Below are positions 4,388 through 29,388 of a stretch of 30,654 bases of DNA, in pieces. The stretch covers positions 1 through 30,654 of the forward strand of contig CAVVYR010000012.1 of assembly GCA_963752475.1 (NCBI GenBank). The letters are read 5' to 3'. The translations under genes and the position numbers were made by a program. Source of the stretch: an uncultured Chloroflexia bacterium (lineage in GTDB: Bacteria > Chloroflexota > Limnocylindria > Limnocylindrales > CSP1-4). The notes beneath the pieces are model-generated. The model was given only the letters and a program-made list of their open reading frames with translations. It was not told where the DNA came from and made no database searches. Each line of letters starts with the position of its first letter. The first letter of the stretch is position 1.

Positions 4388-4642
4388 CTAGTGTCCCGCG
4401 TCTGAACTTGGTTGACGGGTCGCGCGGGGCAGGATCTCGTCGGCGGTCTTGGTCCAGGTGAACGGATGGCAGCGTCCGTTCCAGCCGTAGATGAAGGTCC
4501 GGATGGCAGCCACGAGCTGCGGGACGCTGGCGAATGAGCCACGGCGGATGACCTGTCGGCTGATGATGCCGAAGAACACCTCGACGAGGTTCAGCCACGA
4601 GCCCGAGGTGGGGGAAGTGGAGCGTCACCCGGGGATGCTTGG
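4388..4642 (-). mobile_element. IS630-family remnant A: transposase C-terminus and right end
   Basis: KHPRVTLHF/PTSGSWLNLVEVFFGIISRQVIRRGSF.SV..L...I..FI..WN....PFTWTKTADEIL, with a frameshift near 4612-4616. The end CTAGTGTCCCG is at 4388-4398. Confidence 0.88.
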
Positions 4643-5265
4643 TCGAGGCCAGGGTCCGCGACATCGTGGGCCTCTACCTCGACCCACCCGACGGCGCGAT
4701 CGTCCTCAGCGTCGACGAGAAGACCCAGATCCAGGCCCTCGACCGGACCCAGCCGATGCTGACGTTGCGCCCCGGGCAGGCCGAGCGCCACACCCATGAC
4801 TACAAGCGCCACGGCACCACCTGTCTGTTCGCCGCGCTCCAGGTCGGCAGCGGGGCCGTCACCACCGACCATCGGGCCCGCCATACCGGACGACTTCCTG
4901 GCTTTCATGCGCTGGGTGGCCCGCGCCTATCCCGAGGGCGAGCTGCACGTCGTGCTCGACAACGTCTCCACCCACACGACGCCCGCGGTACGGGCCTGGC
5001 TCGAGCGACATCCCGCATCACCTTCCACTTCACCCCGACAAGCGCCTCGTGGATGAACCAGATCGAGACCTGGTTCGGCATCCTCACCCGCAAGGCCATC
5101 CGTCGGGGCAGGTTCGGCAGCGTCACGGAGCTCATCGCGATGGTCGATGCCTTCACCCGCAGCTGGAACGAGGGCGCCAGGCCCTTCGTCTGGGTCAAGA
5201 CCGCGGATGCCATCCTGGCCAAGGCCGTGCCCAAACCGCCAGCCAATAGCGGATCGGGACACTAG
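4642..5265 (+). mobile_element. IS630-family remnant B: 5'-truncated DDE transposase and right end
   Basis: VRDIVGLYLDPP..AIVLSVDEKTQIQALDR...HDYKRHGTT..LFAAL / VVLDNVSTH / FHFTPTSASWMNQIETWF. Compensating frameshifts near 4888 and 5013, no HTH region, and the end CGGGACACTAG at 5255-5265. Confidence 0.9.
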
Positions 5266-6200
5266 CCCGTCGACCGGAGCGCCTCGTCGATGGACACCGA
5301 CGTGTCGAAGCGGCGTGCGCGGATGAGCGCCTCGATGGCGCACAAGACCCTCGTCAGCTCCACGTTCGCGCTCACGGTGTAGGCTGCGTCTGTGTGACGG
5401 GACCCCTCGTTCGCCTCACCTAGCAGCGTACCCAGGGCCCGTTCGAAGCTGGCGGGGAAGTCCAGCGGCGTGCTCGGTGAAGTGGCCCGACCGCGGTCTC
5501 CCCAGAACTCGAGGGTCTCGGTCTTGTCCGCTGGCTCGGCGTGCAAGGTCATCCTGGTGGTGCTGACTGCACCTTGCTGGTGCCGCAACGCAAGTGCTGT
5601 CTCCCCGAGTGGGTCGTGCGCCGTCACCGAGACCGCCGTCACCGGCCCGAGCACGGCCACCAGTTGCGACACGATGTGCGGTCCCACGTCCCAGAGCGCG
5701 CCGCCTTCGTGGCGCCACCGGGACGCCGCATAGGGGCTGCCCTCCGCCAGCGCGGCGGAGATGAACTCGACGTGCCCGCTCGTGTGGCCCATCCGCGCCT
5801 GCCCCCGCAGCCACGCGGAACGGACGGGCTCGAACAGGCGTGTCAGGAACACCAGTGCTGCGACCCCGGCCCCCGAAACGGCTGCATCGACTCGGCGAGC
5901 GTCCGGCACGGACAATGCCATGGGCTTCTCCATCAGCAGGTGCTTGTGGGCCTGGGCGGCCAGGACAGCAGGATCCACCTGGACCGCCGGTGCGACCGCC
6001 AGGTCCACCAGGTCGACCGCGTCGAGGAGCTGCGCGAAGCTGGCGAAGGCACGAAGCCCGTGCGCATTCGCGATCCGCTCGCGCGCCGCCACGTTGCGAC
6101 CCCAGATGCCGTGGGCATCACCGCCCCCTAGTGCCTCGATAGCCGGCGCGTGGATGGTCTCGGCCCAGTAGCCGGTACCCACTAGCCCGACCGAGATCAT
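5262..6200 (-). CDS. Gfo/Idh/MocA family oxidoreductase (in frame with the upstream DHDPS-like gene in this sequence)
   Basis: Own likely start ATG 6200: MISVGLVGTGYWA, then HLLMEKPMA and GGALWDVGPH. Confidence 0.85.
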   Translation of the reverse strand: MISVGLVGTGYWAETIHAPAIEALGGGDAHGIWGRNVAARERIANAHGLRAFASFAQLLDAVDLVDLAVAPAVQVDPAVLAAQAHKHLLMEKPMALSVPDARRVDAAVSGAGVAALVFLTRLFEPVRSAWLRGQARMGHTSGHVEFISAALAEGSPYAASRWRHEGGALWDVGPHIVSQLVAVLGPVTAVSVTAHDPLGETALALRHQQGAVSTTRMTLHAEPADKTETLEFWGDRGRATSPSTPLDFPASFERALGTLLGEANEGSRHTDAAYTVSANVELTRVLCAIEALIRARRFDTSVSIDEALRSTG

Positions 6201-7112
6201 CGCCCGACGCTCGCGGCGATCGATCTCGACCTTCGTCGCTGCCGCCGGGGGCAGCACCTCGAGCGGGACGCTGACGGCTGGAGTCTCGATGATGCCGTCG
6301 CGGTGCAGCAGGTGCTTGAGGGCGCCCAGCTCTGAAGCGTGGCGGCCGAGACCATGCTCCTGGCCCACGCCGAGGATCCCCGCCATCACATCGACCTGCG
6401 CCTGGAGCTGCCGGAGTCGCTCGTGGTCGCCCGCGCGGTGAGCCGCATGGAGCCCTACGAACAGGTCCGGGCACACGTTGCCGACGCCGGGCACGATGCC
6501 GTCCGCACTCGCGGCCAGGGCTTCGGAGGCCAGTCGGTCCGATCCCAGCATCATGGTCCGATCGCCCACGCCGCCGACCTCGCGCACGATGCGCCGGAAG
6601 GCGGCCATGTCACCGGAGGTGTCCTTGAGGCCCACGATCACGTCACGCCCGAGCAGGTCGATGACGACATCGACAGGCAGTTTGCGCCCGACGTTGCCCG
6701 GGATGTCGTACGCGATGACGGGCAGCGAGCTGGCCGCGGCGATGGCTTCGAAGTGACTCCTCGTCTCGGTGGCACTGACGTCGGCGTAGAACGGTGCCGT
6801 GACCACGATGGCCGCGGCCGGCCAGCGCTCGATCCAGCGAGCTTGCTGGATGACCCGTGCCGTCGAGCCCGCGAGTGCTCCTGCGAGGACGGGGACCGCA
6901 CCCCCGACGGTCGAAAGCACGACCTCGAGCGTCCTGGCCCGGGCAGCATCGTCGAGATAGATGGCCTCGCCACTGGAGCCCAGCGTGAACAGTGCATCGA
7001 CGTCTGCCTCGAGCTGACGGGCCACGAGGCGCTCGAGGCTGCGCTCGTCCACCCTCCCGTGATCTGCGAGCGGCGTGCAGATGGGGATGACGATGCCGGT
7101 GAGTCTGGTCAT
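6197..7112 (-). CDS. Dihydrodipicolinate synthase/NAL superfamily aldolase (2-keto-3-deoxy sugar-acid aldolase-like); stop lost by a +1 frameshift, giving the 616-aa ORF 5262..7112
   Basis: GIVIPICTP, LGSSGE, YDIPG, GLKDTSG and DGIVPGVGN; the residues differ from true DapA (GTTGE, KEA). An alternative frame ends IAASVGR* with an ATGA overlap at 6197-6200. Confidence 0.85.
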
Positions 7113-11437: not shown

Positions 11438-11522
11438 CTTGTCCTCCTTGGGCTACTGCCAGTTTCTCGGTCCATGCCCAAACCTCCGGCGGCCATCCTA
11501 TATCATCCGAGAGCCGAGGCGC

Positions 11523-11556
11523 TATACTTTTTCGAAACGTTTCGCGAACCGTTTGA
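11523..11556. promoter_or_regulatory. Divergent promoter region with a TATACT -10 box and a tandem LacI-type operator (site 1)
   Basis: TATACT at 11523-11528. Perfect palindrome CGAAACGTTTCG at 11533-11544, immediately followed by CGAACCGTTTGA at 11545-11556. Confidence 0.7.
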
Positions 11557-11605
11557 TTCGAGGCCAGCCCCAGCGCCGCGCTGGTCCGCATGGGAGTTCC
11601 ATCTG

Positions 11606-12787
11606 GTGAGTCGAGAAGTGCTGATGCCGCGCCTGTCCCAGGATATGGAGACTGGCCAGGTGGTGGAGTGGCTGAGGACCGAAGGCGACCTTGTCGAGGA
11701 GGGGGATCCGCTCCTGGTGGTGGAGACGGACAAGGCCAACATGGACGTCGAGGCGCCGGCCTCTGGGGTGCTGCGGCGCGTCCTCGCCAGCGTCGGCGAC
11801 GAGCTGACCGTCGGGAGCATCCTGGCCATCATCGTCGGCGAGGATGAGGAACTGCCGGAGCAGGAGCCCGCGTCACCGCCGGCGCCGCCCGCGTCACCTC
11901 CGGTGCCGCCGAGAGCGGACGATGACGTTGGGGCCGGCGCTCCCGCGCGTCTGGCTGTCAGCCGCTCGGGTCGCCAGCCGGTGTCTCCGGCGGCACGGCG
12001 CGTGGCGAACGAGCTCGGCGTCGACATCACCCAGCTGCGTGGCAGCGGTGAGGGCGGCCTCATCACGGAGGCCGACGTCCGCGCTGCAGGAGCCGGAGCG
12101 TCTCCATCCTCGGCGGCGGCCGCCGGTGACCGCACGGAGGTCCCCCTCGTGGGTGCGCGCCGGCGCATCGCCGAGCGCATGGCCCTGAGCCGACGGACCG
12201 TGGCCGATGTGACCACGGTCATCGACGTGGACATGGACCGTGTCGCGGCACACCGCAAGACCTCAGGCCAGCCCTACACGGCGTACGTCGCGTGGGCGGT
12301 CGCTCGCTCGCTGGTCGATCACCCGGCCCTGAGCGCGACGATGGAGGACGGCCACCTGTTCAGGTATGCCCACGTCAACCTTGGCGTCGCGGTCGCCCGC
12401 GACGACGGGCTCGTCGTCCCCGTCATCCGTGAGGCTGAAGGGCTCGCGCTCTCCGAGCTCGCGGCCAGGATTGATGACCTCGCCGCAGCGGCGAGGAGCG
12501 ACACCATCCAGCCGGAGGCACTGACGGGCTCCACCTTCACCGTGACCAACTCGGGCACCTATGGCTCGCTGCTCTTCACGCCCATCGTCAATGTGCCGGA
12601 GGTCGCCATCCTGGGCATGGGTCGGGTCGCCGACACCCCTATCGTCCGTGACGGGTCCGTGGTCGTGGCCAAGGTGATGTATCTCTCGCTGAGCTACGAC
12701 CACCGAGCGGTCGATGGGGCGGATGCCGTGTCCTTCGTGGCCGACGTGAAGCGCCGGCTCGAGACGCTGGAGGAGGCGGCCGCATGA
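11606..12787 (+). CDS. 2-oxoacid dehydrogenase E2 (dihydrolipoamide acyltransferase)
   Basis: GGGAG RBS then GTG 11606. Lipoyl domain ETDKA, peripheral-subunit-binding domain SPAARR...GSGEGGLITEADV, TFTVTNSG and catalytic DHRAVDG. Confidence 0.93.
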   Translation: MSREVLMPRLSQDMETGQVVEWLRTEGDLVEEGDPLLVVETDKANMDVEAPASGVLRRVLASVGDELTVGSILAIIVGEDEELPEQEPASPPAPPASPPVPPRADDDVGAGAPARLAVSRSGRQPVSPAARRVANELGVDITQLRGSGEGGLITEADVRAAGAGASPSSAAAAGDRTEVPLVGARRRIAERMALSRRTVADVTTVIDVDMDRVAAHRKTSGQPYTAYVAWAVARSLVDHPALSATMEDGHLFRYAHVNLGVAVARDDGLVVPVIREAEGLALSELAARIDDLAAAARSDTIQPEALTGSTFTVTNSGTYGSLLFTPIVNVPEVAILGMGRVADTPIVRDGSVVVAKVMYLSLSYDHRAVDGADAVSFVADVKRRLETLEEAAA

Positions 12788-13818
12788 CCGTGCCCACCTC
12801 GCACACGAGAGCGGGTCGACCCTCCGACGCCCTTGAGGCCGAAGCCCTGATCACGATGTACCGCCAGATGCTGCTGACCCGGGCGTACGAGGACCGCGCA
12901 CAGGAGCTGTGGTCCACGGGCGTGGTGGTCGAGTCGCTCCATGGCAGCCAGGGGCAGGAAGCCATCGGCGTGGGCGCCTGCTTCGGGCTGCGTCGCGATG
13001 ACGTCATCCTGCCGTCGCTTCGGACGCGCAGCGCCTACTTCGTGAGGGGCGTATCCCCGCGACAGTTCCTCGCCGGGATGCTGGGGAAGGCGACCGGCGC
13101 GGCCAACGGCAAGGCCACCGCGCACCACATGGCTGCGCCGGAACAGGGCGTGATGCTGGGAAGCGCCATCGTGGGCGGCTCCATCCCGGTCGCCACCGGC
13201 GCCGCTCTCGCCTTCAAGATGCAGGGACGCGACAGCGTCGCGGTCTGCTTCTTCGGCGACGGCGCCGCCCAGCGCGGCGACTTCCACGAGGCCCTCAACT
13301 TCGCTGGCGTCTTCCGGCTCCCGATTGTCTACGTCATCGAGAACAACGGCTATGCCGAGTTCACGCCCATCGAGAAGCATTTCGCAGGCTCGAGCCTGTC
13401 CCTGCGGGCGGAGGGCTACGGCTTCGGCGGATCGACCACCGACGGCAACGATGTCCTCGAGGTCTATGACACGGTCACCGATGCGGTCGCCCTCGCACGC
13501 TCTGGAGGCGGGCCGACCCTCGTGGAGTGCATCACCTACCGCCAGCGGGGCCATTCCTCGAGTCACCCGCCGACCGAAGGTCGAGACGAGGAGGAGGTCG
13601 CTTCCTGGCTGGAGAAGGATCCCATCGATCGCTACCGTCTCGAGCTGCAGCAACGCGGTCATCTCGATGACGAGCGCATCGAGCAGATCAAGCAGGACGT
13701 GGACGCGGAGATCGAGGAGGCGGTGCGCTTCGCGGAGGATAGCCCCGCACCCGATCCGGCCGAGCTTCACCGCGACGTCTACGCAGCTCCCGTGACCGCG
13801 CAGGAGGTCGGGCGATGA
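12784..13818 (+). CDS. TPP-dependent dehydrogenase E1 alpha subunit
   Basis: GQEAIGVG, TPP motif FGDGA...ENNGYA, DGNDV and GPTLVECITYR..GHS. Confidence 0.93.
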   Translation: MTVPTSHTRAGRPSDALEAEALITMYRQMLLTRAYEDRAQELWSTGVVVESLHGSQGQEAIGVGACFGLRRDDVILPSLRTRSAYFVRGVSPRQFLAGMLGKATGAANGKATAHHMAAPEQGVMLGSAIVGGSIPVATGAALAFKMQGRDSVAVCFFGDGAAQRGDFHEALNFAGVFRLPIVYVIENNGYAEFTPIEKHFAGSSLSLRAEGYGFGGSTTDGNDVLEVYDTVTDAVALARSGGGPTLVECITYRQRGHSSSHPPTEGRDEEEVASWLEKDPIDRYRLELQQRGHLDDERIEQIKQDVDAEIEEAVRFAEDSPAPDPAELHRDVYAAPVTAQEVGR

Positions 13819-14801
13819 GCGTGATGACCAACCGCGACGCGGTCCGACGTGCGCTCCAAGAGGAGATGCGACGAGATGAGCGCGTCTTCCTCTTCGGCGA
13901 GGATGTCGCGGAGCCGGGCGGTGTGTTCAAGGTGTCGCAAGGGCTCCTCGACGAGTTCGGGCCCGAACGTGTCTTCGACACGCCCATCAGCGAATCGGCG
14001 CTCGCTGGCGTCGCCGTGGGTGCGGCCATGATGGGCATGCGTCCCGTGCTCGAATTAATGTTCGCGGACTTCACGACCATCGCCATGGACGGCATCGTGA
14101 ATTCCGCCGCCAAGACCAGGTTCCTCTCGGCCGGCGAGGTCAGCGCGCCACTCACCGTCCGGATGACGTATGGGGCGGGCCCGCGCTGGGGTGCACAGCA
14201 CACCCAGTCGATTGAGTCGTGGCTGACCAATGTCCCCGGCCTGACCATCGTGATGCCGTCGACGCCCTCAGATATGCTGGGTCTGCTGAAGTCGTCGATC
14301 CGCTCGCCCGACCCGGTCATCTTCCTCGAGCACAAGCAGACCTACGGGCTGAAGGGCGAGGTCCCCGACGTGGAGTACACCCTGCCCATCGGACGGGCGG
14401 ACATCAAGCGTGCCGGTGAGGACGTCACCATCGTGGCCTCCGGGGCGATGGTGGAGCGTGCGCTCAAGGCGTCCGAGGCACTCGGTGCCCGGGGGACCAG
14501 CGCGGAGGTGATCGACATCCGCACCGTCCTGCCCCTCGACGTCGAGACCATTGTCGAGTCTGTCGTGCGCACCGCGCATCTGGTGGTGGTGCATGAGGCC
14601 CCCGTCTTCGGCGGCATCGGAGGCGAGATTGCGGCCTCGGTGGCGCAGGAGGCGTTCGGCTACCTCGATGCTCCGGTCCAGCGCCTCGGTGGCGCCTGGG
14701 CGCCGATCCCGTTCGGGCAGACGCTCATCGATGAGTACCTGCCGAGTGAGGCGGAGATCGTGCGCGCGGCATCACAGACCCTCGGCGGATCCGTGAGCTA
14801 G
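13815..14801 (+). CDS. TPP-dependent dehydrogenase E1 beta subunit
   Basis: GEDV..PGGVF, DTPISE, RPVLELMFADF, GAQHTQS and DPVIFLEHK. Confidence 0.94.
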   Translation: MSVMTNRDAVRRALQEEMRRDERVFLFGEDVAEPGGVFKVSQGLLDEFGPERVFDTPISESALAGVAVGAAMMGMRPVLELMFADFTTIAMDGIVNSAAKTRFLSAGEVSAPLTVRMTYGAGPRWGAQHTQSIESWLTNVPGLTIVMPSTPSDMLGLLKSSIRSPDPVIFLEHKQTYGLKGEVPDVEYTLPIGRADIKRAGEDVTIVASGAMVERALKASEALGARGTSAEVIDIRTVLPLDVETIVESVVRTAHLVVVHEAPVFGGIGGEIAASVAQEAFGYLDAPVQRLGGAWAPIPFGQTLIDEYLPSEAEIVRAASQTLGGSVS

Positions 14802-21209: not shown

Positions 21210-21233
21210 CGAAACGATTCGATTATCGTTTCG
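21210..21233. promoter_or_regulatory. Tandem LacI-type operator (site 2), upstream of the CoA-transferase genes
   Basis: CGAAACGATTCG (21210-21221) followed by ATTATCGTTTCG (21222-21233). The 24-mer has 9-bp inverted arms CGAAACGAT/ATCGTTTCG, and TTGACG lies at 21196-21201. Confidence 0.65.
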
Positions 21234-21298
21234 AACACAGACGAGTCAGGCGCCCGCCTTCTGGCCAGCCGGCAGCGTTGAGAACGAGGGAGATGAAG

Positions 21299-22490
21299 AT
21301 GCAGGCGCCGCTCGAGGGCATCAAGGTCCTGGACATCAGCCGGGTGCTGGCGGGTCCGTTCTGCTGCATGTTGCTGGGCGACATGGGCGCGGATGTCGTC
21401 AAGGTCGAGCGTGTCGGGCGCGGCGACGACGTCCGTGCCGTCGGCGACAAAGTCGGGGGCGAGAGCCTCTACTACCTGATGATGAATCGGAACAAACGTG
21501 GGGTCACGCTCGACTTCCGCAATCCACGGGGCATCGAGCTGCTCAAGTCGTTGGTCGCGGAAGCCGATGTGCTGGTGGAGAACTTCCGGGCCGGCACGAT
21601 GGAGAAGATGGGCTGCAGCTACGACGTCCTGAGGGAGATCAACCCGCGCCTGGTGATGGCCAGCCTCTCCGGTTTCGGACAGGACGGACCCTACCGAGAC
21701 TATGCCTGCTTTGACATGATCGCCCAGGCCATGGGCGGGCTGATGGACCTGACCGGCGAACCCGGTCGACCACCGGTCACCACGGGCACGTTCCTCGTCG
21801 ACTATGCCAGCGGCATCTACGCGGCGTTCGGGTATCCTTGGCGCACTGCGCGCTCGTGACGTCACGGGCGAGGGCCAGCACGTCGACGTAGCGTTGCTGG
21901 ACACGGCCGTGTCGTTCCTGATCACGGCCATCCCTGAGTACCTGCTGCTGGGCAAGAAGATGACGCGGCGCGGGAATCGTGACCGCTACGCCGCACCGGC
22001 GAACCTCTTCGAGGCCAAGGACGGTCGTTACGTCTTCGTCGCGTCCGCCACCAATTCGCTCTTCCCGCGCCTGCTGGCTGTCATGGGACGCTCGGAGATT
22101 CTGCAGGACCCGCGCTTCGCCACGAACGAGGCTCGCATGAAGAACGTCGAGGCCAGCGAGGCCATCCTGGCCGAGTGGGTCGGGGAGCGGACGGCCGACG
22201 AGGTCGTGGAGCTGGTGCGCGGTGCCGGACTCCCATGTGCCAAGGTGGCGACCATCGATGAGGTCGTCGAGGATCCGCAGGTCAAGCATCGTGAGATGCT
22301 CGTCGAGATCGAGCACCCCACGGTCGGCCAGCTCCCCATGCAAGGCCTCAACGTCCGCTACTCCGCATCGACACAGAGCATTCGTCGCCCACCGCCGCTC
22401 CTCGGCCAGCACAACCACGAGGTCTATGCCGAATGGCTGGGCCTCGATGCAGCCGCCATCAAACGGCTCGCGGCGGATGGCGTCATTTGA
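21299..22490 (+). pseudogene. CaiB/BaiF (family III) CoA-transferase split by one +1 frameshift (possibly a sequencing error)
   Basis: PLEGIKVLD.SRVLAGP, NRNKRG, DVLVENFR and ACFDMIAQAMGG. An extra G in the GGG at 21830-21832 joins ORFs 21278..21859 and 21804..22490, which ends PPLLGQH. Confidence 0.88.
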
Positions 22491-22582
22491 TCGGCCCGGC
22501 GCATGACGAGTGACCGACAGCCGGCGTCTCCCGGATTCGGCCGATACCCGACGGCGAGCATCGAAGAGAGGGGCACCGCACC

Positions 22583-23464
22583 ATGAAACCCAAGCTCATG
22601 AGCATGGCCGAGGCCGCCCGCCTGGTGCCATCCGGAAGCACCATCGCGGTCGGGGGCAGCATCATCCGGCGGTCTCCGGCGGCGTTCATGCGCGAGCTCA
22701 TCCGCCAGGGCACGTCTGACCTGCGCATCCTGGCCTTCCCGGCCGGGTTCACCATGGACATGCTCGCCGGCGCCGGCGCGGTGAGGCGGGTCGAGGCCGT
22801 GTACGAGGGCCTTTTCCAGTTCGGCATGGCCTACAACTTCCGGCGCGGCGTCGAACAGGGGGCGATCGAGATCCGGGACTTCCCGGAGACATCGATGATC
22901 GCCCGCTTCCGCGCAGCTGCCCAGGGCATCTCGTTCATGCCGACCGATGTCCTGCTGGGCACGGGCATGGCCGAGCACAACCCAGAGCAGATCCGTGAAA
23001 TCGCATGTCCCTTCACGGGCAAGGCCTATCACGCCGTCGAGGCCGCGGTCGCGGACTTCACCGTCCTACATGGGTACGTCGGCGACGAGTACGGGAACGT
23101 GCAGTTCCCGGTCCAACGCGACAGCGACGACATCGATCCCATCATGGCCAAGGCCGCCGGCCGGCTCATCGTCACGGTCGAGAAGATCGTGCCGCACGAG
23201 GAGATCCTGCAGCGGCCCAACCTGACGTATGTCCCGCACCTGTGGGTCGAGGCCATCGTGGAGGCGCCATTCGGTGCGCATCCGCTCAGCTGTGACGGGT
23301 ACTACGACGAGGATGCGGAGCACATGGAGTACTACCAGGCCTGCTCCAAGGATGGCCGCTTCGATGAGTACGCGGCGGAATACATCCATGGTGTCGAGGA
23401 TCACTGGGAGTACCTGCGCAAGGCCCTGACTCCCCAGCGCATCTTCGAGCTCTCAGTACGTTAG
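22583..23464 (+). CDS. Family I CoA-transferase-fold protein, subunit A (GctA/IpdA-like)
   Basis: IAVGG....RSPAAF.RELIRQG, RFRAAAQGISFMP, CPFTG, DEYGN, IVTVEKIV and PFGAHP.SC.GYY. Confidence 0.9.
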   Translation: MKPKLMSMAEAARLVPSGSTIAVGGSIIRRSPAAFMRELIRQGTSDLRILAFPAGFTMDMLAGAGAVRRVEAVYEGLFQFGMAYNFRRGVEQGAIEIRDFPETSMIARFRAAAQGISFMPTDVLLGTGMAEHNPEQIREIACPFTGKAYHAVEAAVADFTVLHGYVGDEYGNVQFPVQRDSDDIDPIMAKAAGRLIVTVEKIVPHEEILQRPNLTYVPHLWVEAIVEAPFGAHPLSCDGYYDEDAEHMEYYQACSKDGRFDEYAAEYIHGVEDHWEYLRKALTPQRIFELSVR

Positions 23465-23475
23465 GAGCGGAACCG

Positions 23476-24285
23476 ATGTCCTACGCGGACGACTACACCC
23501 TCAACGAGCTGCTCGTGGTCGCAGCGTCCCGAGAGCTGCGCGACGGCGACCTCGCCTTCGTCGGTGTCGGGACCGCTGGCCGGGCCTTCACGCTCGCGGT
23601 CGGCATCCCCATCGCCTCGGCCAGGCTGGCCCAGCTCACGCATGCTCCCGACATCACGATCTACTGGGGAAACCTGCTGAGCCCAGATCTGACGCGCATC
23701 CCGCCCGACCTGACGCAGCACGAGATCACGACATGGCCGTGTGCGAGTCAGATGGCCCATACCGGCGACAAGTGCGACATGTTGGCGCGCCGCCAGTTCG
23801 ACGTCTCGTTCGACTCGGCGCCCCAGATCGACCGATACGGCAACCTGAACATCACCGCCATCGGTGACTACAAGAAGCCCAGGGTCCGATTGGTCGGATG
23901 CCTGGCTCAGACCGATCACTTCGCCTACGTGAAGCGTCCCATCGTGATCACCGACCTGCGCTCCCGCACGTTCGTGGAGCGCGTCGACTTCATCACCAGC
24001 GTGGGGCACCTCGATGGTGGGGATTCGCGTGACCGGCTGGGCCTCGACCCCGGTGGACCATGGCGTGTCATCACGGATATGGCCGTGTTCGGCTTCAACG
24101 CTGAGTCCAAGGAGATGGAGCTCCTTTCTATCCATCCCGGCGTGACCATGGAGGCGGTGCTCGAAGCCATGAGCTTCCACCCGCTGGTCCCCGACGACGT
24201 TCCTGTAACGGAGGCGCCGACGATAGAACAGGTGCGTCTCATCAGAGAGGACATCGACCCCAACCGCATCCTCCTCGTCGCCTGA
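23476..24285 (+). CDS. Family I CoA-transferase-fold protein, subunit B (GctB/IpdB-like), lacking the catalytic Glu
   Basis: ELLVVAASREL.DGD, LAQLTHAPD, QIDRYGNLN, FVERVDFITS.G, VITDMAVF and SIHPGVT. It has IYWGN where active enzymes have IYESG. Confidence 0.9.
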   Translation: MSYADDYTLNELLVVAASRELRDGDLAFVGVGTAGRAFTLAVGIPIASARLAQLTHAPDITIYWGNLLSPDLTRIPPDLTQHEITTWPCASQMAHTGDKCDMLARRQFDVSFDSAPQIDRYGNLNITAIGDYKKPRVRLVGCLAQTDHFAYVKRPIVITDLRSRTFVERVDFITSVGHLDGGDSRDRLGLDPGGPWRVITDMAVFGFNAESKEMELLSIHPGVTMEAVLEAMSFHPLVPDDVPVTEAPTIEQVRLIREDIDPNRILLVA

Positions 24286-26463: not shown

Positions 26464-26488
26464 TCGAAACAATTCGCGAACCGATTGT
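26464..26488. promoter_or_regulatory. Tandem LacI-type operator (site 3) in a divergent intergenic region
   Basis: TCGAAACAATTCGCGAACCGATTG (26464-26487) matches 11532-11555 at 21 of 24 positions. Confidence 0.7.
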
Positions 26489-27080: not shown

Positions 27081-27358
27081 CACCGACCGTCGAGGAGATG
27101 CTGGCCGTCGCCATCAGTCACTCCTTCCGCGAGGGTGCAGTTGGCTTCATCGGCCTCGCGAGTACGTCCGTTCGATCCATTCTTGTGACCGAGGTCGACG
27201 TGGGCGAGAGCACCGGGTTCGCACTCCCATCCGCGTCGGCTGCCCCCACCACCGAGGAGCCCCCTGCGACGGAGCTCTCCACCCTTCGCACCGTAGTCGA
27301 TCCAGCCGGGCTGCTGGGCGGCGCCGGCGCCGCCGCTGCCCAGGGGTCGGGTCGTTGA
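27077..27358 (+). pseudogene. Internally deleted CoA-transferase subunit B remnant
   Basis: The N-terminus TVEEMLAVAISHSFREGAVGFIGL is joined almost directly to the C-terminus ESTGFAL...APTTEEPPATELSTLRTVVDP. It is 93 aa versus 269 aa for the paralog at 23476. Confidence 0.7.
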
Positions 27359-28422
27359 CGACGCTCGCGGATGTCGCTCGCCGTGCCGGCGTCTCCGTGT
27401 CCACGGCATCGTATGTGGTCTCGGGAGCTCGTCCGGTCGGCGAGCAGACACGCCAACGCGTCCTCGATGCTATCGCGGAGACGGGATACACGCCCGATAC
27501 CGTCGCTCGATCCCTCAGGAGTCATCGATCCGAGGCGATCGGCTTGGTCTTGCCCGACATCCGCAACCCGTTCTTCGCCAACGTGATCGACGGTGTCGAG
27601 ACCGAGGCCAGAGCTCAGAGGCAGACGCTCCTCTTCGTCAACTCCGCGGAGGATCCCGACCTCGAGGTCGATGCCCTGCGCCAGCTCCGCTCGCGCCGCG
27701 TCGACGGCCTGATCGTCGGTCTCACGCGCGATATGCCACCGCAGGCCCTCGAGGGACTCCAGACCGCCAAGGTGCCGGTCGTCCTGGTCGACCGCGCCGG
27801 TCCCCCCGGGTTCGACCAGGTGCTCGTCGCCAACGACATCGCCACCATGGTGCTGGTCGACCATTTGCTCGAGGCCGGCCACCAGCGTATCGGGATGATC
27901 GCCGGCGTGCGCGGGATTTCCACAGCCGAGGACCGAATCACTGGTTTCCTCGCTGCGCTTGACCGCGCCGGGCTATCTCCGGACGACTCGATCATCATCG
28001 ACGGCGGCTCCAGGCGTGAGCTGGCTCGCGTGGCCGTCAGCGAGGCCCTGCGCTCCGGGCAGCGGTTCGACGCGCTCGTGGTCGGCAACAACGAGATGAC
28101 CCTGGGCACGCTGGAGGCCATCTCGCTGCTGGGACTGCGCATCCCCGACGACATCGCCGTTGTGTCCGTCGACGACCTTCCCACCGGGAGTCTCCTGGCG
28201 TCGCCGCTCACGGCCGTCGTCCAGCCCAGCTTCGCCGTAGGACGTGAAGCGATGCGGCTGCTGCTCCGTCGTGTCCAGGCGCCCGACGCTCCCGCCCAGC
28301 ACATCCGTCTGCGGGCCGGCTTCGTCCATCGACGATCGTGTGGCTGCCCGTTCTCCAACCCCCGGGAAGCTGAGCGCCAAGCCTCCCCGGACGCGGTCAT
28401 GACCGTGGGGCGACCCCGATGA
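27355..28422 (+). CDS. LacI-family transcriptional regulator
   Basis: TLADVARRAGVSVSTASYV HTH, ARSLR hinge, IGLVLPDIRNPFF, RVDGLI, PLTAVVQP and RRSCGC. Confidence 0.95.
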   Translation: MTTLADVARRAGVSVSTASYVVSGARPVGEQTRQRVLDAIAETGYTPDTVARSLRSHRSEAIGLVLPDIRNPFFANVIDGVETEARAQRQTLLFVNSAEDPDLEVDALRQLRSRRVDGLIVGLTRDMPPQALEGLQTAKVPVVLVDRAGPPGFDQVLVANDIATMVLVDHLLEAGHQRIGMIAGVRGISTAEDRITGFLAALDRAGLSPDDSIIIDGGSRRELARVAVSEALRSGQRFDALVVGNNEMTLGTLEAISLLGLRIPDDIAVVSVDDLPTGSLLASPLTAVVQPSFAVGREAMRLLLRRVQAPDAPAQHIRLRAGFVHRRSCGCPFSNPREAERQASPDAVMTVGRPR

Positions 28423-29388
28423 GCGCCCCTGGCCCGCGCCGGCCTCGCTACCGCGATCTTCCTCCGGCGACCGATCGACGTCCGGCGGGCTCATCATGGG
28501 GTCTGTTCGGTGAGACGGACGAGATCGGCACGCTCAACCTGATCGACTCCGGACGCGATCCGGAGGGCTGCCTCGCTCGTGCAGTGGGGGACGATGTTCC
28601 CGCTCGACTGGCGGGCCGACTTGCCGTCTCCGCCCCTCCTCGGTCGCGGTGCCGCCCGCCGGGTCGAGAAGGATCTGGAGCCCGGCACGGACGACTACTA
28701 CGACAACTACTATCCGCAAGCCTCGAGCCAGTGGGACGCCCTGCGTCATGTCGGCCATGCGACGTACGGCTACTACAACGGGATCGAGCTGGACGATCGG
28801 CGGGACCTAGGCCAGTCTCACCTGGGTATCGATCGCTGGGCCGAGCACGGGATCGCCGGCCGTTTCGTGCTGATCGATATCGGGCGCGTTCGCGATCGGT
28901 GCGGCGACCCGATTCCGCAGGACCAACCGATCGCCGTGACGGCTGCGGAGCTTGACGAGGCCCTCGTGAACCAACAGGTAGCGCTCGAGCACGGCGACAT
29001 CCTCCTGCTGCGTTTCGGCTGGATCGCCTGGTACGAGCTGCTGAGTGACGGGCAACGGGAGCGGCTGGCGACCGCTGGGATGTTCCCGGCTCCGGGCCTG
29101 GCGGCGGCCGAACGGACCGCCGAGTGGCTGTGGGATCACGGCGTCGCGGCCGTGGCGAGCGATACGCCGGCACTCGAGGCGATGCCCTTCGACCGCTCGT
29201 CGATCGACGGGTTCTTGCACTACCGCCTGGTCACGTTCCTGGGGATGGCCATCGGCGAGCTCTTCGACCTGGAGCGGCTGGCTGAGGACTGTGACGCCAA
29301 CCGCGTGTACGAAGGGCTGTTCACCTCAGCGCCGATGCACTACCCCGGGGGCTCCGGTTCCCCGGCGAACGCGCTGGCGATCAAGTAG
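28419..29388 (+). pseudogene. Cyclase-family (kynurenine formamidase-like) metal hydrolase with one +1 frameshift (possibly a sequencing error)
   Basis: SSWGLFGETDEIGTLNLI, a frameshift near 28548, then IRRAASLV..G, QASSQWDALRH, GIAGRFVLID, GDILLLRFGW, AVASDTPALE, IGELFDL and GSPANALAI. Confidence 0.85.

Follow-up and report, generated by a model that had tools for sequence, protein, structure and literature searches.

The 30,654-nucleotide stretch analyzed here (the window) is a complete 30.6-kb contig, C12, of a metagenome-assembled genome of an uncultured Chloroflexia bacterium (completeness 88.8%, contamination 5.8%). It encodes, directly after a CaiB-type gene, a pair of proteins, subunits A and B, with the fold of the family I coenzyme A (CoA) transferases but without the beta-subunit glutamate on which catalysis in that family depends. 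The loss is family-wide, the partner alpha subunits carry an invariant glutamate of their own, and the linkage to a CaiB-type gene recurs in distant bacteria. We predict, with slightly less than even confidence, that A/B is an IpdAB-like, CoA-thioester-dependent enzyme that cleaves a C-C bond as part of a CoA cycle shared with its CaiB partner and acts on an acid derived from a sugar or a cyclitol. The elements on which the argument turns are the following.

21278-22490, + strand: CaiB-type family III CoA-transferase gene, read as two open reading frames (ORFs; 21278-21859 and 21804-22490)
22583-23464, + strand: subunit A, 293 residues, alpha subunit with the family I CoA-transferase fold (PF01144, E 6.9e-27)
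22886-22888, + strand: codon of Glu102 of subunit A, a candidate catalytic base, which pairs with residue 117 of the IpdA chain
23476-24285, + strand: subunit B, 269 residues, beta subunit without the catalytic Glu (PF01144, E 4.2e-14)
23569-23601, + strand: 11-residue insertion GTAGRAFTLAV in subunit B (residues 32-42, between FVGV and GIP), an 11-column gap in hhalign
23662-23673, + strand: YWGN motif of subunit B (residues 63-66; Trp64 is encoded at 23665-23667), where canonical subunits have [YF]ESG

The PF01144 match spans nearly the whole profile in both subunits. Among protein chains in the PDB, subunit A was closest to GctA (E 9.4e-35), AibA (8.5e-31) and IpdA (2.2e-25), and subunit B to GctB (9.4e-29), IpdB (1.3e-18) and AibB (6.1e-14); canonical transferases scored far more weakly against both. 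A structural model of subunit B derived from 17 sequences (predicted local distance difference test score 79.9, predicted template modelling score 0.84) gave query-normalized Foldseek TM-scores of 0.79 to 1poi_B, 0.71-0.74 to AibB and 0.71-0.73 to IpdB, and of about 0.60 to the canonical CtfB, AtoA and SCOT. Together with the missing carboxylate described below, these matches agree with the initial annotation, which had placed the pair in the GctAB/AibAB/IpdAB group as a form without the beta-subunit Glu. By analogy with the three solved A/B relatives, A and B presumably form a heteromer. Neither subunit reached an NCBIfam cut-off and no dedicated model was found there, and a search of the ESM Atlas returned generic CoA-transferase clusters only. 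The family is sizable: a word-index search gave 1772 matches at E <= 0.001, and 80 representatives at 50% identity matched at E <= 1e-30, both counts including neighbouring subfamilies. Its members are publicly annotated as 'CoA-transferase' or 'glutaconate CoA-transferase subunit B'.

The motifs FVGVGTAGRAFTLAVGIP and THAPDITIYWGN are both present in subunit B, the latter instead of the canonical consensus THAPxxxxI[FY]ESG (20 representatives; IFESG). These motifs and the codon of Trp64, like the IRDFPET motif of subunit A and its Glu102 codon, lie where the initial annotation had put them. The 120 best database homologues (61-92% identity) all have [IV][YF]W[GN]N with Trp64, and not one of these 120 has Asp or Glu at positions 62-68. 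Since Trp64 is found in all of them it is neither a private mutation nor an error, and that possibility, raised along with the original observation, is ruled out. The exact counterpart of the lost Glu depends on the aligner. Three comparisons pair Trp64 with the Glu: HMMER against GctB, BLASTP against the canonical paralogue of the same genome, and MAFFT with 125 representatives; the profile-profile program hhalign leaves a gap opposite the Glu and pairs Trp64 with the preceding Tyr; HMMER pairs Gly65 with Gly57 of IpdB, and Asn66 with residue 56 of the C56N variant of AibB. By sequence alignment, then, a carboxylate is absent in every register, and this part of the earlier claim stands; the other part, that Trp occupies the Glu position, is one among several equally possible registers (Trp64, Gly65, Asn66 or a gap). 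The genome's canonical pair, encoded on contig C6, has Glu in its B subunit (LILIYEAG) and His in its A subunit.

The 11-residue insertion was judged in hhalign against 20 canonical Glu-bearing relatives, and the earlier estimate of about 11 residues was borne out. Its distribution was followed in an alignment of 126 sequences, namely the query and 125 representatives of 200-330 residues out of 150 listed. The insertion is present in 20 of the 126, where Glu occurs in none, Trp in 5 and other residues in 15; the 106 sequences that lack it have Glu in 41 cases, another residue in 58 and a gap in 7. In this alignment the insertion goes together with loss of the beta Glu. Because only 5 of the 20 insertion-bearing sequences have Trp, the Trp marks the close family, and the insertion marks a wider glutamate-less clade.

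In subunit A, HMMER paired Glu102 with residue 117 of the IpdA chain. This residue is Glu in 6co6 and 6co9 and Ala in 6coj, and within the part of the chain that aligned (residues 18-301 of 308) nothing else distinguishes 6co6_A from 6coj_A. The initial annotation had matched Glu102 by eye with the catalytic Glu of IpdA, and the match holds, in that Glu102 aligns with the residue changed from Glu to Ala between these two chains. We take residue 117 of the chain to be Glu105, the catalytic base of IpdA; the IpdAB structure paper of Crowe and colleagues (2018) is said to assign a catalytic role to Glu105. The corresponding residue is Gln in GctA and Gly in AibA. Glu was found here in all 57 A subunits that adjoin a B subunit of the Trp-bearing (W) type, at the loci where the A ORF was found. 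A second glutamate-less type (B motif LTILLGW) likewise has the alpha Glu in 17 of 17 partners, and a third (B motif VxLVFSG) has His in A in 8 of 9. The absence of the beta Glu together with the presence of the alpha Glu is a combination that A/B has in common with IpdAB.

According to an mBio 2017 paper (PMC5380842), ping-pong CoA transfer in family I requires the beta Glu, Gly57-beta of IpdB is the equivalent of GCT (glutaconate CoA-transferase) Glu54-beta, and IpdAB, which is without the beta Glu, had no CoA-transferase activity. Since ping-pong transfer needs this residue, A/B very likely does not work by the mechanism of a family I transferase, and the public name 'CoA-transferase' is almost certainly wrong in that regard. 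The pair might still transfer CoA through another nucleophile, such as Glu102, or by way of a ternary complex, as the full-length PF01144 matches in both subunits and the public annotation would allow. We consider this decidedly unlikely: the catalytic-Glu motif is missing in 120 of 120 homologues, the relative that shares the alpha Glu, IpdAB, was inactive as a transferase, and a dedicated family III transferase adjoins the pair in nearly all loci, where a second would be redundant.

The CaiB-type gene itself is real, as first proposed, and matches PF02515 in two halves (profile positions 1-174 and 172-366). Its split into two ORFs results from a single extra G at 21833 (stretch 21830-21833), seen by comparison with the orthologous DNA of a related locus (L001), which is 84% identical. 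The base is absent from contigs of two short-read runs, X1 (depth 4.6) and X2 (depth 2.9), that are otherwise identical there; the two runs belong to the same study and are possibly from the source sample of the window. It should be noted that parts of the window are without cover in X1 and X2 and that two further runs, X3 and X4, contain relatives at 90-95% likeness only; no RNA data set was listed among the sequencing runs. When the base is removed, a single ORF of 403 residues results, which aligns without gaps to the L001 orthologue at 88% identity. The frameshift is most likely an assembly error, not the mark of a pseudogene. Among solved proteins, succinate-hydroxymethylglutarate CoA-transferase (SUGCT; E 1.3e-87) is nearest to the orthologue in L001. 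Alternatively, the CaiB-type protein could be an intramolecular transferase, as the abstracts on Mct and ThnP describe for those enzymes.

Related loci were collected with one genome per species, which gave 61 loci; those with a W-type B subunit number 58 (57 public loci and the window). The scan was seeded by two peptide patterns containing the YWGN motif and cannot show relatives that lack it; these are covered by the alignment of representatives. All ORFs of at least 90 residues within 10 kb on either side were clustered, and one representative of each cluster was named by Pfam or NCBIfam; as the ORFs were called in GC-rich DNA, some clusters were antisense artefacts and were set aside. The closest loci are from uncultured Chloroflexia (88-90% identity), and the whole set spans Chloroflexota, NC10, Actinomycetota, Spirochaetota, Bacillota and Pseudomonadota, with hosts that include Lachnospiraceae and other Clostridia, Alpha- and Betaproteobacteria and Enterobacterales. 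In Escherichia coli genomes there was no match to the DNA of the orthologue from Izhakiella. The association with a CaiB-type gene, noticed at first in the window only, is conserved across these loci, and several other neighbours recur.

Intact CaiB-type ORF: 53 of 58 loci within 10 kb, 43 of 58 within 2.5 kb
LacI: 35 of 58
Thiamine diphosphate (ThDP)-dependent enzyme like acetolactate synthase (ALS; NCBIfam PRK06112, 942 bits): 28 of 58
Second or third glutamate-less A/B pair: 26 of 58
Dak1 and Dak2: 22 of 58 each
MaoC-like protein: 18 of 58
E1-beta: 13 of 58
Shikimate-dehydrogenase-like gene: 12 of 58
IolC-like kinase: 10 of 58

Four loci illustrate the range of arrangements. In the Lachnospiraceae locus L016, genes for DeoR, a TRAP (tripartite ATP-independent periplasmic) transporter, E1-alpha, E1-beta and CaiB precede A and B, and an IolC-like kinase, a shikimate-dehydrogenase-like protein, an iron-type alcohol dehydrogenase (Fe-ADH), an HpaB/AbfD-family protein and a butyryl-CoA-transferase-like protein follow. 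Downstream of A/B, L016 (12892-16944) as well as L015, L017, L018 and L042 encode Fe-ADH, a member of the HpaB/AbfD family and one of the acetyl-CoA hydrolase/transferase family; these genes look like a route from 4-hydroxybutyrate to crotonyl-CoA. The Subtercola locus (L013) has DeoR, DUF2090, FGGY, a shikimate-dehydrogenase-like gene, a cyclase, a zinc-type alcohol dehydrogenase, an aldehyde dehydrogenase like 2,5-dioxovalerate dehydrogenase, A, B, a 960-residue flavin and iron-sulfur oxidase (FAD/FeS; YdiJ/GlcD-like) and a ThDP enzyme. The Izhakiella locus (L033) has LacI, an L-type A/B pair, the W-type pair, a second LacI, a ShiA-like transporter of the major facilitator superfamily, MaoC, CaiB, DhaL, DhaK and a ThDP enzyme. 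Finally, an island on a plasmid of Azospirillum argentinense, flanked by unrelated genes and IS3 elements, contains a sugar ABC transporter, an L-type pair, LacI, the W-type pair, CaiB, a protein named 'acetolactate synthase', DhaK and DhaL; within this island no oxidoreductase or dehydrogenase was found. In Proteobacteria the ALS-like ThDP enzyme seems to stand in for E1-beta. Many of the proteobacterial loci (L019-L060) have two or three distinct glutamate-less pairs adjoining one another (for example, 7365-10801 in L033 and 6253-8015 in L091), and in the Azospirillum record the B subunit of the second, LTILLGW type is named 'hypothetical protein'.

The reaction of IpdAB is described in a review as retro-Claisen hydrolysis of a CoA ester (PMC6678751). 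As IpdAB, which hydrolytically opens the ring of a beta-oxo-acyl-CoA, is the sole solved relative with the same arrangement of glutamates, we propose C-C cleavage for A/B as well. The CaiB-type neighbour would supply the CoA-transfer function in place of A/B, and in A/B itself water or a beta-hydroxyl group would be attacked by Glu102 as the base. An acyl-CoA with a beta-oxo or beta-hydroxy group would then be cut between its alpha and beta carbons and a thioester enolate left, either by retro-Claisen hydrolysis (beta-oxo) or by retro-aldol lysis (beta-hydroxy), with a short acyl-CoA as product. From this acyl-CoA the SUGCT-like CaiB enzyme would load the next free acid, which would make the CoA cycle independent of ATP. 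A polyhydroxy or oxo acid of C5-C7, partly deoxygenated and of sugar or cyclitol origin, is the probable substrate; downstream, a ThDP-dependent step would act on a 2-oxo or ketol intermediate, and a triose or ketose would be phosphorylated. These assignments are based on the neighbours and on kinship. A 2-oxoacid or ketol intermediate is suggested by the recurrence of the ThDP enzyme or of the E1/E2 complex, and a triose or ketose product by the kinases (Dak, IolC-like and FGGY). The SUGCT-like partner and the relation to Gct and Aib suggest a C5-C7 acid, which may be a dicarboxylate; the enzymes to which A and B are most closely related have glutaconyl-type CoA esters as substrates. The Azospirillum island, being without a dehydrogenase, fits redox-neutral lyase chemistry. 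A comparable logic is found in the catabolism of itaconate and citramalate, where a family III CoA-transferase is combined with citramalyl-CoA lyase and the acetyl-CoA released by the lyase reloads the transferase; that lyase, however, is a member of the CitE or HpcH families and does not have the CoA-transferase fold.

The three solved relatives differ from A/B in distinct ways. GctAB of Acidaminococcus fermentans (PDB 1poi) is the top solved match for both subunits and has the same gene order, A then B, but GctB has the catalytic Glu54 where subunit B has YWGN and, in addition, the 11-residue insertion; no 2-hydroxyglutarate fermentation genes like those of the GctAB context were found nearby. 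IpdAB (PDB 6co6, 6co9, 6coj and 6con), the ring-opening hydrolase of COCHEA-CoA in steroid catabolism, shares both the loss of the beta Glu and the alpha Glu but is less similar in sequence than GctAB (E values as given above). Its genes belong to steroid catabolism under KstR2, whereas A/B lies among sugar-acid and cyclitol genes with CaiB, and no steroid-ring genes were found among the A/B neighbours. AibAB of Myxococcus xanthus (PDB 5mzw), a 3-methylglutaconyl-CoA decarboxylase, is a glutamate-less member of the same subgroup, with the CoA ester of a C5-type dicarboxylate as substrate and with a biosynthetic context. Around Glu72 of AibB, its proton source, the HMMER alignment with subunit B is highly uncertain.

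This last relative raises the alternative that A/B is an AibAB-like decarboxylase: the CaiB/SUGCT-like transferase would make a beta-carboxy or vinylogous (glutaconyl-type) acyl-CoA, and A/B would release CO2 from it. Among solved structures AibA ranks second for subunit A, the TM-score of AibB to the model of B about equals that of IpdB, AibAB too has lost the beta Glu, and the CaiB partner is akin to a C5-dicarboxylate transferase; the Lachnospiraceae loci add Fe-ADH, AbfD-like and butyryl-CoA-transferase-like genes that would lead towards crotonyl-CoA and butyrate. On the other hand, Cys56 of AibB, which replaces the Glu there, has no counterpart in subunit B, where the motif reads W/G/N and the YWGN segment contains no Cys; AibA has Gly where the A family has its invariant Glu, and no genes of the AibAB context were found nearby. 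We think a decarboxylase unlikely.

A third kind of chemistry is suggested by the multiplicity of pairs. In 26 of 58 loci there are two or three different glutamate-less pairs, which would suit consecutive small rearrangements, and A/B might be a proton-moving acyl-CoA enzyme (an isomerase, epimerase or dehydratase) in which Glu102 serves as base at the alpha carbon and no C-C bond is broken. Conservation of the alpha Glu would be expected of such an enzyme as well, and a MaoC-like hydratase is present in just 18 of 58 loci. IpdAB, alone among the solved relatives in having the alpha Glu, is nevertheless a C-C hydrolase, and no member of the CoA-transferase fold is known to have isomerase, epimerase or dehydratase activity, nor did literature searches reveal one. 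Such a function also seems to us improbable.

The CoA-transferase fold is akin to that of sugar-phosphate isomerases (NagB/RpiA), and the Azospirillum island imports its substrate by a ribose-type sugar ABC system and has no acid-making oxidoreductase. On these grounds A/B could be imagined as a sugar isomerase, a lactonase or a non-catalytic ligand-binding protein on the NagB/RpiA/CoA-transferase-like fold. In view of the tight CaiB-type linkage, and of the CoA esters bound by all three solved close relatives, we regard a function unrelated to acyl-CoA as very improbable.

Cleavage of a C-C bond is the reading that we prefer, and several observations weigh against it. No enzyme that would make a beta-oxo compound is encoded in the Azospirillum island, which disfavours the retro-Claisen variant there. 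The sequences of A and B are nearer to GctAB and AibAB than to IpdAB, so that decarboxylase or another activity is equally compatible with the fold. The catalytic role of IpdA Glu105 is presumed here. Five of the 58 loci had no intact CaiB ORF in the clustering, the window with its frameshifted copy among them. The wider insertion-bearing clade varies at the Trp64 position (V, Q, I, L, Y, F or D); as Trp64 is not kept across that clade it is unlikely to be catalytic. Finally, C-C cleavage does not account in detail for the ThDP enzyme, for Dak or for the second A/B pair.

The initial annotation had also offered the pair as a stand-in for a missing IolD, the ring-opening enzyme of inositol catabolism, and this was not borne out. 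IolD is encoded on contig C14 of the same genome (864 bits against a cut-off of 715), adjoined there (region 111220-115009) by a second IolB (305 bits, as compared with 224 bits for the IolB copy of the window), and IolA/MmsA is on contig C6 (687 bits). IolC exceeded its cut-off in the window only, within this genome. With IolD, IolB and IolA elsewhere and IolC in the window, the canonical inositol route is complete without A/B. Moreover, the substrate of IolD is a dione, which offers CaiB no acid to activate, and the family is found mainly away from iol genes: the IolB of the window has a match in none of the 61 loci, and most of the 57 related loci are without iol genes. Replacement of IolD was rejected on these three counts. 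Disposal of malonate semialdehyde, by conversion of 3-oxopropanoyl-CoA to formate and acetyl-CoA, was likewise rejected as the general function, since it is not needed where IolA is present and few of the loci are iol loci; it is kept as one possible substrate only. In the pathway from inositol to propionate in Anaerostipes, 'OxcT' is a single gene (AR1Y2_1115) in an organism that has IolD (PMC8355322), and it was not equated with A/B. A paper on conversion of inositol to butyrate by Dysosmobacter proposes an oxoacid dehydrogenase complex for 3-oxopropionate, and term searches of it found no mention of a transferase, CoA-transferase included, or of glutaconate.

Candidate substrates can be named on paper. 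Possible reactions are opening of the ring of shikimoyl- or quinoyl-CoA to give dihydroxyacetone (DHA), free or phosphorylated, and succinate semialdehyde; retro-aldol cleavage of apionyl-CoA to DHA and glycolyl-CoA; and lysis of a 2-substituted malyl-CoA or a CoA ester of the 3-hydroxy-3-methylglutaryl (HMG) type to a 2-oxoacid and acetyl-CoA. Deoxyribonate pathways (PMC6365646) provide a precedent for CoA esters of sugar acids, but with other enzymes; a paper on L-threonate 3-dehydrogenase (PMC12994016) is unrelated. In its most specific and rather unlikely form, our proposal is that A/B and CaiB are the ATP-independent, C-C-breaking, CoA-cycling core of a so far unrecognised route of catabolism that at least six phyla possess. 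Its acid would be either a sugar acid, branched or deoxy, or a cyclitol-carboxylic acid like quinate or shikimate, and the CoA ester of this acid would be opened or split to dihydroxyacetone phosphate and a C4/C5 acid (succinate semialdehyde or a 2-oxoacid). Among glutamate-less members of the fold, A/B would then stand for a third class of reaction or for a new class of substrate, marked by the GTxGRAF insertion and the alpha Glu. The hosts to which this would apply include gut Lachnospiraceae and plant-associated Proteobacteria.

The remainder of the window holds a palindrome in the gap upstream of the CaiB-type gene and a set of genes for sugar and inositol metabolism.

784-1845: IolB (224 bits)
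In the window: DeoC/DUF2090-type aldolase gene
5262-7112, - strand: ORF of 616 residues, a fusion of a DHDPS-family domain and a Gfo/Idh/MocA oxidoreductase domain
In the window: sugar ABC transporter genes
11474-14801: E2, E1-alpha and E1-beta of a 2-oxoacid or acetoin-type dehydrogenase
In the window: FGGY kinase gene
In the window: IolC (347 bits against a cut-off of 300)
In the window: alpha/beta hydrolase, ROK and Gfo/Idh/MocA oxidoreductase genes
21211-21232, no strand: operator-like palindrome GAAACGAT-N6-ATCGTTTC
In the window: D-2-hydroxyacid dehydrogenase and xylose-isomerase-like TIM-barrel genes
27355-28422: LacI gene
28579-29388: PF04199 'cyclase' gene

The E2/E1-alpha/E1-beta set is complete, lies amid sugar and inositol genes and is followed by the FGGY kinase gene. 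Stand-alone DHDPS-family genes are present in five related loci, and a PF04199 'putative cyclase' recurs in the neighbourhood of A/B, both in the window and at three related loci (L010, L013 and L053). Between the IolB and aldolase genes and the remaining cluster there is a weak match to a fragment of a DDE_3 transposase (4639-5265; E 1.3e-8).

The palindrome agrees with the operator copy that the initial annotation had placed upstream of the pair. It has arms of 9 nucleotides, was first spotted by reading the sequence, and was followed by a pattern search that allowed at most two mismatches. Related sites lie at 11535-11554, before the E2 operon, and at 26467-26486, before the TIM-barrel and 2-hydroxyacid-dehydrogenase genes. 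The pattern AAACGNT-N6-ANCGTTT has 3 matches in the window (the one before CaiB at 21212-21231) against 0.17 expected, and none of 100 shuffles reached 3. This suggests that the E2 operon, CaiB-A-B and the TIM-barrel/2-hydroxyacid-dehydrogenase genes form a single regulon, perhaps controlled by the LacI protein encoded at 27355-28422.

No publication on the W-type A/B subfamily was found in full-text literature searches. A/B very likely adds to the members of the CoA-transferase fold that are not transferases, so far only IpdAB and AibAB, and the alpha Glu provides a simple sequence marker with which the superfamily can be sorted. The family is large and widespread and travels with a fixed CaiB partner. 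Its reaction, once known, would give these non-transferase members a new chemistry or a new class of substrate, would assign a function to a conserved gene cluster of soil, plant-associated and gut bacteria, and would probably reveal a CoA-dependent route for a plant-derived acid.

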